Under the pieces are notes generated by a model that saw only the letters and a program-made list of their open reading frames with translations, made no database searches and was not told the origin of the DNA. Shown here one piece after another: positions 21,978-22,960 of a stretch of DNA of 64,000 nt (within the stretch, counting starts at the first letter, position 1; the number at the start of each line of letters is the position of its first letter). A program made the translations under genes and the position numbers. Source of the DNA: an uncultured bacterium (lineage in GTDB: Bacteria > Hydrogenedentota > Hydrogenedentia > Hydrogenedentales > Hydrogenedentaceae); assembly GCA_937124615.1 (NCBI GenBank), contig CAKZKR010000097.1:8697-72696 (forward strand). The letters run 5' to 3'.

Positions 21978-22960
21978 TTAAGTTAATGCAGAAACGAGAA
22001 CTCCAATTACGATTGCCACTGCTTGAGTTACAGGAGCTGTTCCTCCGGTGGGTTGATAACGGATAAATTCTACATGACCATCAAGGTATAGTACATTAGA
22101 CCCGCCGGGAATATGATTGAAATCAGACGGATTTGAGGCTACTTTGTCAAACATGATGGGTAAAGAACTCTGTGCTTTTGAACTTGCAGCAGGATTGTTA
22201 ATATCTGTAATTAAGAATCTTTCAATACCTTCGCGTAAGCGATAGACTGTGTTGGTTCCTGCATTGCCATATCCGGCAAGTGTGTCGCTGGTGATGTCTG
22301 CATCGACAACACGCATTATTCCTGCATTATCTTTTGTTTGGACAGCGGTTACCAGTTCTGGTTTTGCTAATGATATCAATCCATATACTAATTGTGCGGG
22401 CGCATTCCCGGAACCGGAAACAGGACCTGCTCCTAATGCGTTCAAGACATTAACCATGGGTGTAATATCTACCATAGGCCATTCATCACCTATGCGGTCC
22501 ATGACCAGTCCTAAATAGATATAACTTGAATCCATTGCAGAAGCACAGGAAACGGTATCATTTGCATAGTAGTTAATGCACCATTCATCACGGTCAGGAT
22601 ATTTGGCACGGGTAATTGTTTGGCGGTAGTCAGAATCCGATGGACAGAAGGCAATCATAGGGTCGTTGAGATATTCTGGATAGATTAAGAAAGTACTTGG
22701 ACATAAATCCGCACGTACATCGATGTTTCCGTCAATTTTTGGATAAGCCCCAAATTGAACGGGAGGGAATCGTTCTCCTTTTGCTTCGTTTGCATACATT
22801 TTAAAAACAAGTCCCCATTGTTTTAAGTTGTTTTGACAACTGGAACGGCGGGCGGCTTCACGAGCACGAGCAAGGGCAGGTAATAAGATAGCAGCGAGGA
22901 TACCAATGATGGCAATTACAACCAGTAATTCAATTAATGTAAAACCTTTTTTTTCAACAT
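21978..22960 (-). pseudogene. Prepilin-type N-terminal methylation / DUF1559 / H-X9-DG protein, frameshifted in an A8 tract after the start codon
   Basis: [43 protein letters not shown] and [15 protein letters not shown] are in frame. The RBS-ATG (22960) frame ends at TAA; the tract has 8 A where 9 are needed. Confidence 0.8.

Follow-up and report, generated by a model that had tools for sequence, protein, structure and literature searches.

The DUF1559 prepilin-like gene at positions 21978-22960 (minus strand) of the stretch of 64,000 nucleotides analysed here (the window) appears to be a genuine loss-of-function allele of very recent origin, affecting one of about 30 such paralogues in a Candidatus Hydrogenedens strain, a reading to which we give a probability of roughly three in four. 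The allele segregates among conspecific strains: three assemblies carry the off state and one the intact gene. It is an ordinary young frameshift null allele for which a trace of rescue by slippage is possible, and in this sense a real but ordinary finding. Phase variation and a homopolymer sequencing error, two of the causes proposed in a preliminary description of the sequence, found no support, whereas the simple pseudogene, which the same description had listed only as a refuting outcome, fits best.

Reading frames and predicted product of the locus

The minus strand of window positions 22934-22975 reads CAAAAGGATATGCGT ATG TTG AAAAAAAA GGT TTT ACA TTA ATT GAA, with the ATG at 22960-22958, the TTG at 22957-22955 and a run of eight A (A8) at 22947-22954, which corresponds to T8 on the plus strand. 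A Shine-Dalgarno (SD) core, AAGGA (22968-22972), lies 7 nt (TATGCGT) 5' of the ATG and is kept in the four closest sister-species orthologues; a 16S 3' end as source of the anti-SD sequence was searched for in the draft genome and none was found. The frame that starts at this ATG (22934-22960), ATG TTG AAA AAA AAG GTT TTA CAT TAA, encodes MLKKKVLH and ends with the stop codon at 22936-22934, just as the preliminary description had read it from the eight A. It is the only reading frame at the locus that possesses both an SD sequence and a start codon.

The mature prepilin-like protein is encoded in a start-less frame of 322 codons plus stop (21978-22946, minus strand), which is open from GGT (22946-22944) to TAA (21980-21978) and whose protein ends with VSALT. 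Upstream, this frame is closed by an in-frame TAA (22980-22982), and none of the codons ATG, GTG and TTG occurs in it from there to the pilin helix, in agreement with what had been described. Its first in-frame start is an internal ATG at 22799, which results in an ORF of 273 aa. The earlier statement that the rest of the gene and its terminator are intact also holds, since all 322 codons are open and a probable intrinsic terminator, a CAGGTAGGACAC / GTGTTCCTACCTG hairpin that contains a single bulge and precedes T6, was recognized by eye at about 21904-21942 on the minus strand. A consensus terminator scanner that disallows bulges did not pick up this bulged hairpin with its T6. The central claim, according to which a one-base frame error within a run of lysine codons turns the gene off in its leader peptide, was likewise confirmed. 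Since the 322-codon frame lacks its own start, the protein is probably not made, or only in traces. A8 and the heptamer A_AAA_AAG are both known slippery sequences, and residual expression would come from rare slippage of RNA polymerase on A8, from rare -1 slippage of the ribosome or from reversion to A9.

Further upstream, a GC-rich block, (T)ACGCGCGTGGCAAAA (22988-23003, minus strand), represents a conserved 5' element of the gene. It is near-identical in the four closest orthologues, and three orthologues at a greater distance (G009, G004 and G006) still share its TGGCAAAA core with CGCG/CGCA.

With one A added, the frame-corrected protein matches the profiles Pfam N_methyl (PF07963; 35.9 bits, cut-off 21.2), TIGR02532 (36.2 bits, cut-off 16.3), DUF1559/SBP_bac_10 (PF07596; 42.8 bits, cut-off 23.3) and TIGR04294 for H-X9-DG (25.5 bits, cut-off 19). 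The prepilin motif G/FTLIE followed by a hydrophobic helix, the PF07596 domain and the C-terminal H-X9-DG motif assign it to the DUF1559 / H-X9-DG prepilin-like proteins. The genome to which the window belongs is a draft of 116 contigs with 3.37 Mb and 37% G+C; its nearest proteins carry the source label Candidatus Hydrogenedens sp., and a motif scan revealed 30 DUF1559-type paralogues next to a set of short true pseudopilins. In Planctomycetes, DUF1559 proteins form a family of unknown function with a very large number of paralogues (PMC10632474, PMC2754498), with 68 copies in Planctopirus limnophila, two of which are essential (PMC10632474), and 74 copies in Rhodopirellula baltica (PMC2754498). 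The family studied here shares with these the domain set and the organization as a large family (30 copies in a 3.4-Mb genome), but differs in its host, a member of the Hydrogenedentota, and in that the copy at 21978-22960 is left without a usable start.

Origin, authenticity and age of the A8 tract

Orthologues of the gene are present in four sister species at approximately 82% DNA identity, and the upstream region is conserved as well. In three of them (G007, G001 and G002) the leader reads ATG TTA AAA AAG AAA GGA (MLKKK/G) and in the fourth (G008) ATG TTG AAA AAG AAC GGT (MLKKN/G), in frame in each case; in the protein alignment, identity to the G007 orthologue amounts to 94%. Thirteen further members were read (the 90% cluster comprises 24), and they all have MLKKKG, MLKKNG or MNKKG in front of the pilin helix, with the exception of P0126. 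This orthologue of 307 aa is seemingly truncated at its N-terminus as a result of an annotation choice, its DNA being ATG AAC AAA AAA GGC in frame. Likewise, the calls of 156 aa and 205 aa for the neighbouring 5-FTHF cyclo-ligase reflect a difference between gene callers, the DNA being identical.

An intact allele was also found within the species. Contig k141_20495 (607 kb) of the conspecific ENA assembly ERZ27245459 is 99.95% identical to window positions 18286-26002 and possesses the leader ATG TTG AAA AAG AAA GGT; its gene is called with 327 aa, contains N_methyl and DUF1559 and does not differ from the gene body in the window at a single one of 966 nt. Since this contig and the four sister species carry the interrupted run (AAAAAGAAA or AAAAAGAAC), the window allele is derived from AAAAAGAAA: the G of the fourth codon was lost between positions 22950 and 22949 of the minus strand, whereby A5-G-A3 became A8. 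The preliminary description had taken A9 as the intact state. Nine A indeed restore the frame, but the real in-frame allele in the relatives is AAA AAG AAA: A8 is absent from the orthologues, and the intact conspecific allele has A5-G-A3 and not A9.

As to the mechanism, the ancestral leader was ATG TTG AAA AAG AAA GGT (MLKKK/GFTLIE), and the G that interrupts the run was lost in the strain lineage either by direct deletion or by a G to A change with subsequent slippage by one A. The fusion of A5-G-A3 to A8 displaced the frame by -1 after the third codon, and ribosomes that start at the sole SD-ATG come to a halt after eight codons. The locus is closest to young pseudogenes and strain-level knock-outs that result from deletion of a single base beside a homopolymer, and there are comparable deletions in human genes. 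In DMD c.2281delG (A4GA5 to A9; PMC12946587) and in the apoB deletion that creates an A8 (cited in PMC1088944), a non-A base is likewise lost, two runs fuse and the frame shifts; the fused run is itself prone to slippage, so that a low level of rescue is conceivable. In contrast to both, the lesion described here affects the fourth codon of a bacterial leader that is cleaved off, in one of about 30 paralogues.

Three assemblies show A8 on direct reading, namely the genome of the window, JGI 3300025104 (contig Ga0209721_1000438, 38 kb) and NCBI GCA_036769585.1 (contig DAIPKU010000001.1, 836 kb). They do not repeat a single consensus, as the JGI contig differs from the window by 16 SNPs in 20.7 kb and the NCBI contig by 2 SNPs in 21 kb, although the three A8 assemblies may stem from samples that are not fully independent; for the ENA assembly, 17 SNPs and 2 indels were counted in approximately 42 kb. 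There is a second derived change in the window, GAAAGGA to AAAAGGA at position 22974 (minus strand), 2 nt upstream of the SD core, where the ENA contig and the sister species have G. The JGI and NCBI contigs also carry this derived AAAAGGA, 25 nt upstream of the deletion, and over 7.7 kb the deletion and this SNP are the sole two differences between the JGI and the ENA contig. In a pattern scan for the variable tract in metagenome contigs, in which records other than those close to the genome of the window were covered, no match was obtained; the JGI contig, which does match the pattern, was reached by a separate search for encoding contigs.

It is conceivable that the organism truly carries AAAAAGAAA or A9 and that one base was dropped from the consensus during sequencing or assembly. 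The genome is a draft in 116 contigs, homopolymers are the usual place of indel errors, and reads might be shared among the three A8 assemblies. Such an artefact is nevertheless very improbable, since A8 occurs in three assemblies with different SNPs and on contigs of 38 kb, 83 kb and 836 kb. Moreover, A8 is linked on the same haplotype to the second derived SNP 25 nt away, and the loss of a G from inside AAAAAGAAA is not the same as a miscalled homopolymer length. Frame breaks at long homopolymers are also not in excess in this genome: in the census, 1.5% of the A8 tracts are located at a frame junction compared to 0.7-1.0% of the A4-A7 tracts, and none of the 111 tracts of A9 or longer. The sequencing error considered in the preliminary description is therefore unlikely, as A8 is found in three SNP backgrounds, the intact allele is A5-G-A3 and there is no excess of frameshifts.

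The gene body gives an indication of the age of the lesion. Compared to the sister species, dN is 0.035-0.049 and dS is above 1 and thus saturated, with an omega of approximately 0.03, and no acceleration of dN was detected on the branch leading to the genome of the window. The low dN/dS ratio together with the identity of the body to the ENA allele indicates that purifying selection on the gene remained strong up to a very recent time, which makes the frameshift a young one. An intact body without any difference over 966 nt is, however, also the expected appearance of a reversible or a leaky allele.

We also considered whether the deletion and the SNP, being only 25 nt apart, point to selection on this pair. 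This idea was dropped, as strain differences cluster elsewhere. Tight SNP clusters between the window and the ENA and JGI contigs are found at 13046-13072, 16562-16565 (positions 16562/16565) and 27045-27054 (positions 27045/27054), and they suggest short recombination patches or a consensus of mixed strains.

Phase variation, slippage and recoding

If slipped-strand mispairing at replication switched the tract reversibly between A8 (off) and A9 (on), the strain could vary one surface or pseudopilus protein. Several features of the locus are in line with this explanation. A homopolymer within a cleaved leader is a classical site of such switches; here, A8 separates the start codon from the pilin motif and its length sets the frame, A9 would restore MLKKK/G exactly, and on and off alleles are both present among conspecific strains. 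However, the on allele is A5-G-A3 and not A9, there is no difference in tract length among the three A8 assemblies, and the tract is absent from all orthologues. Whole-unit length differences between strains, as expected of a contingency locus, were not found (three assemblies have A8 and the fourth AAAAAGAAA), and neither was a conserved tract with mixed frame states, since the run is interrupted and in frame in all orthologues.

A comparison of ten genomes of the genus points in the same direction. At a distance of up to 7 nt from GFTLIE, A8 occurs seven times and A9 never, so that no A9 adjoins a pilin motif in any of the ten genomes. Five of the seven A8 runs are in frame, one is the locus at 22947-22954 and one belongs to a paralogue that has lost its start. 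The preliminary description had suggested looking for poly-A tracts at the same position in other DUF1559 paralogues; it turned out that A8 does occur near the motif, but that it is rare, mostly in frame and not conserved. When the ten genomes were scanned for an ATG 7-8 or 10-11 nt, and thus out of frame, before the pilin motif, the locus at 22947-22954 was the sole true case of an out-of-frame start without an in-frame start, and none was found elsewhere at these spacings. Three other candidates were rejected. G001:C13 (GTG-A8-GGT), which is one of the five in-frame A8 runs, has an in-frame leader of 12 codons, MTWYQVFYSEKK, that is common to its orthologues; in G003:C17 (ATG, 8 nt and GGT), an SD-ATG that is in frame precedes the motif by ten codons; and the match at G000:C97:12658 is a chance match inside hisS.

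MutS and MutL are intact, which also speaks against a switch, as does the fact that in coding sequences A9 runs are counter-selected and A8 runs are not, which suggests that A8 is fairly stable. Overall, we regard a reversible switch as unlikely at this locus. Phase variation as proposed in the preliminary description is thus unsupported in the sense of an evolved switch, given the unconserved tract, the lack of an A8/A9 polymorphism and the presence of MutS and MutL. In Neisseria, pilC1 and pilC2 undergo phase variation by a poly-G tract in the region of the signal peptide. As in these genes, the frame of a pilus-related gene is set here by a homopolymer within the part that encodes the leader; but the tract in pilC1 and pilC2 is long, conserved across strains and paralogues and variable in length, whereas the A8 is a one-off for which no length variation was observed.

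Another site in the window has more the appearance of real variation in homopolymer length than the A8 tract. The conspecific assemblies do not agree on a poly-C tract at 11713-11730 (plus strand), inside the ORF 10973-12130: AA-C7 is present in the window and the JGI contig, A-C8, which is of the same length, in NCBI GCA_036769585.1, and A-C7 in ENA ERZ27245459. This last version lacks one base, and the gene for 384 aa is split there into 115 + 261 aa. A Pfam search with the 384-aa protein resulted in no matches.

The avoidance of long A runs in this genome is pronounced. Within long ORFs, A runs with lengths from 6 to 10 occur 3634, 1318, 413, 44 and 2 times. Three consecutive lysines are encoded by AAA-AAA-AAA only 7 times compared to 161 expected from codon usage, and by AAA-AAG-AAA 119 times compared to 49 expected. 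Selection against A9 is clearly evident from the 23-fold deficit of AAA-AAA-AAA. Since AAA-AAG-AAA is the preferred form, the lost G was the normal run-breaker of the leader, and the resulting A8 lies just below the avoided length. An A9 in frame does exist at the start of hisS (ATG ACA AAA AAA AAT; T9 on the plus strand at 4083-4091), as had been reported.

It is further possible to think of useful expression without any change of the DNA, by RNA polymerase adding an A on A8/T8 or by a -1 slip of the ribosome, which would make the gene a functional allele that is merely tuned down. The heptamer A_AAA_AAG (codons 3-5) is in phase, and a -1 shift leads into GGT TTT ACA and hence to exactly the ancestral protein. 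Runs of eight A reportedly lead to approximately 10% rescue in human apoB and are productive in some bacterial IS elements (PMC1088944), and for the delG in DMD that converts A4GA5 into A9, rescue by transcriptional slippage has been reported (PMC12946587). On the other hand, the arrangement is conserved neither in the orthologues nor in the ENA allele, and downstream structure is absent (minimum free energy of -15 kcal/mol compared to a mean of -19.8 for shuffled sequences, z = +1.63). A gene for tRNA-Lys(CUU) is present alongside that for tRNA-Lys(UUU), and 413 A8 runs are tolerated in long ORFs while A9 is strongly avoided, so that slippage at A8 is probably low. If the linked GAAAGGA to AAAAGGA change has any effect, it weakens the ribosome-binding site. 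Taken together, we consider the chance of useful expression by these routes to be small.

With respect to transcriptional slippage, the run has 8 nt, and counter-selection of A runs in this genome starts at 9. Slippage-prone runs usually have 9 or more and sometimes 8 nt, and a threshold of 9 nt has been reported for many bacteria (PMC1088944). Known realignment sites are the A9 of Thermus thermophilus dnaX, the T9 of Shigella mxiE, the A11 of Citrobacter rodentium tssM1 and the A8/A9 of IS elements (PMC1088944, PMC4256274), and in Citrobacter a longer A run rescues tssM1 (PMC4256274). The locus resembles these sites in that an A run is located at the junction of two frames and one additional A in the mRNA results in the full-length protein. 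However, they comprise at least 9 and rarely 8 nt and are conserved as frameshifted genes, whereas the run described here has 8 nt, is unconserved and follows codon 2; a frameshifted arrangement conserved among its homologues was not found. Transcriptional slippage might be possible only as an incidental leak.

Concerning ribosomal frameshifting, a heptamer of the X_XXY_YYZ type, A_AAA_AAG, is in phase and leads into the needed frame. In E. coli dnaX, tRNA-Lys(CUU) lowers slippage on AAG. Neither a downstream stimulatory structure nor reading of AAG by tRNA-Lys(UUU) alone, two further features of the dnaX type, was found for the locus. The -1 programmed ribosomal frameshift of E. coli dnaX on A_AAA_AAG is mentioned in PMC1851650; the heptamer is identical and in phase here and a -1 shift enters the required frame, but there is no downstream hairpin, tRNA-Lys(CUU) is present, the arrangement is unconserved and the site is located five codons from the start. 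Because of the missing downstream structure, the presence of tRNA-Lys(CUU) and the lack of conservation, any expression would be an incidental leak. The locus does not appear to belong to the known classes of evolved phase variation or programmed recoding, since the conservation and the length polymorphism that define these classes were looked for among the assemblies and relatives and not found.

Damaged paralogues and significance of the allele

Other DUF1559 copies in the same genome are decaying as well, which indicates an ongoing turnover of the paralogues. The paralogue C4:13463 (contig C4, approximately 13430-14380; locus L018, 1680-2627) has lost both the SD sequence and the ATG. Compared to four orthologues, AAGGAG...ATG AAA AAG CAT has become ATAATA...ATT A8 TAT, and thus AAGGAGAAT..ATG AAA AAG CAT GGT is replaced by ATAATAATATTATT-A8-TAT GGC. 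Furthermore, the glycine of its H-X9-DG motif is changed to serine (DS for DG), while its body of 304 codons is open with a dN/dS of approximately 0.03. The paralogue C75:7220 (contig C75, approximately 7120-8190; locus L032, 1620-2690) is the middle gene of a tandem array of three DUF1559 genes. It possesses neither an SD sequence nor an ATG nor a lysine-rich leader, and only a GVG-less GTG is present 17 codons upstream; its body of 322 codons is open, and the homology to its relatives starts exactly at the GFTLIE codons. In C80:3196 (contig C80, approximately 3190-4160), the SD-ATG-MKK leader is intact, but the body is broken by an in-frame stop near codon 119 and a frameshift near codon 225, so that this copy is a classical body-damaged pseudogene. 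A record look-up returned none for the ORF at window positions 37915-39225 and none for the truncated C4 paralogue. Two further DUF1559 copies with 341 codons each are located approximately 3.9 kb apart on contig C113 (minus-strand offsets 52028 and 55903) and have identical 5' regions, which suggests a very recent duplication or a repeat.

Two or three of the 30 copies thus have lesions at the 5' end only, with bodies that are open over 304-322 codons, and one copy has lesions in its body. One could speculate that DUF1559 paralogues in Hydrogenedens are preferentially silenced at their 5' ends (start, SD sequence, A-rich leader) with no loss of the open body, giving off copies that can be activated again. 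Re-activation might take place by slippage from A8 to A9 or by recombination in the 5' coding segment of approximately 190 nt, which has about 80% nucleotide identity among those paralogues that align. This would resemble a slow variation of the pilE/pilS or contingency type, acting on a repertoire attached to the pseudopilus in a free-living uncultured phylum. We consider this idea improbable and claim nothing more than coincidence for the clustering of lesions at the 5' end, as the cases are few and the A-rich leader is an obvious mutational hot spot. If it were true, reversible silencing restricted to the 5' end would represent a new mode of surface variation outside of pathogens.

For annotation, we recommend that the gene at 21978-22960 be marked as an allele with a frameshift in a DUF1559 gene that is otherwise conserved, and be treated neither as a protein of 273 aa nor as an assembly error. 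The case illustrates how a run-breaking AAG guards lysine-rich leaders and what follows from the loss of its G. The natural pair of alleles, A5GA3 and A8, can moreover be used for measuring the slippage of RNA polymerase and of the ribosome in an uncultured phylum. Together with the other paralogues that are damaged at their 5' ends, the allele suggests that in this large family the leader is often the place where turnover starts.
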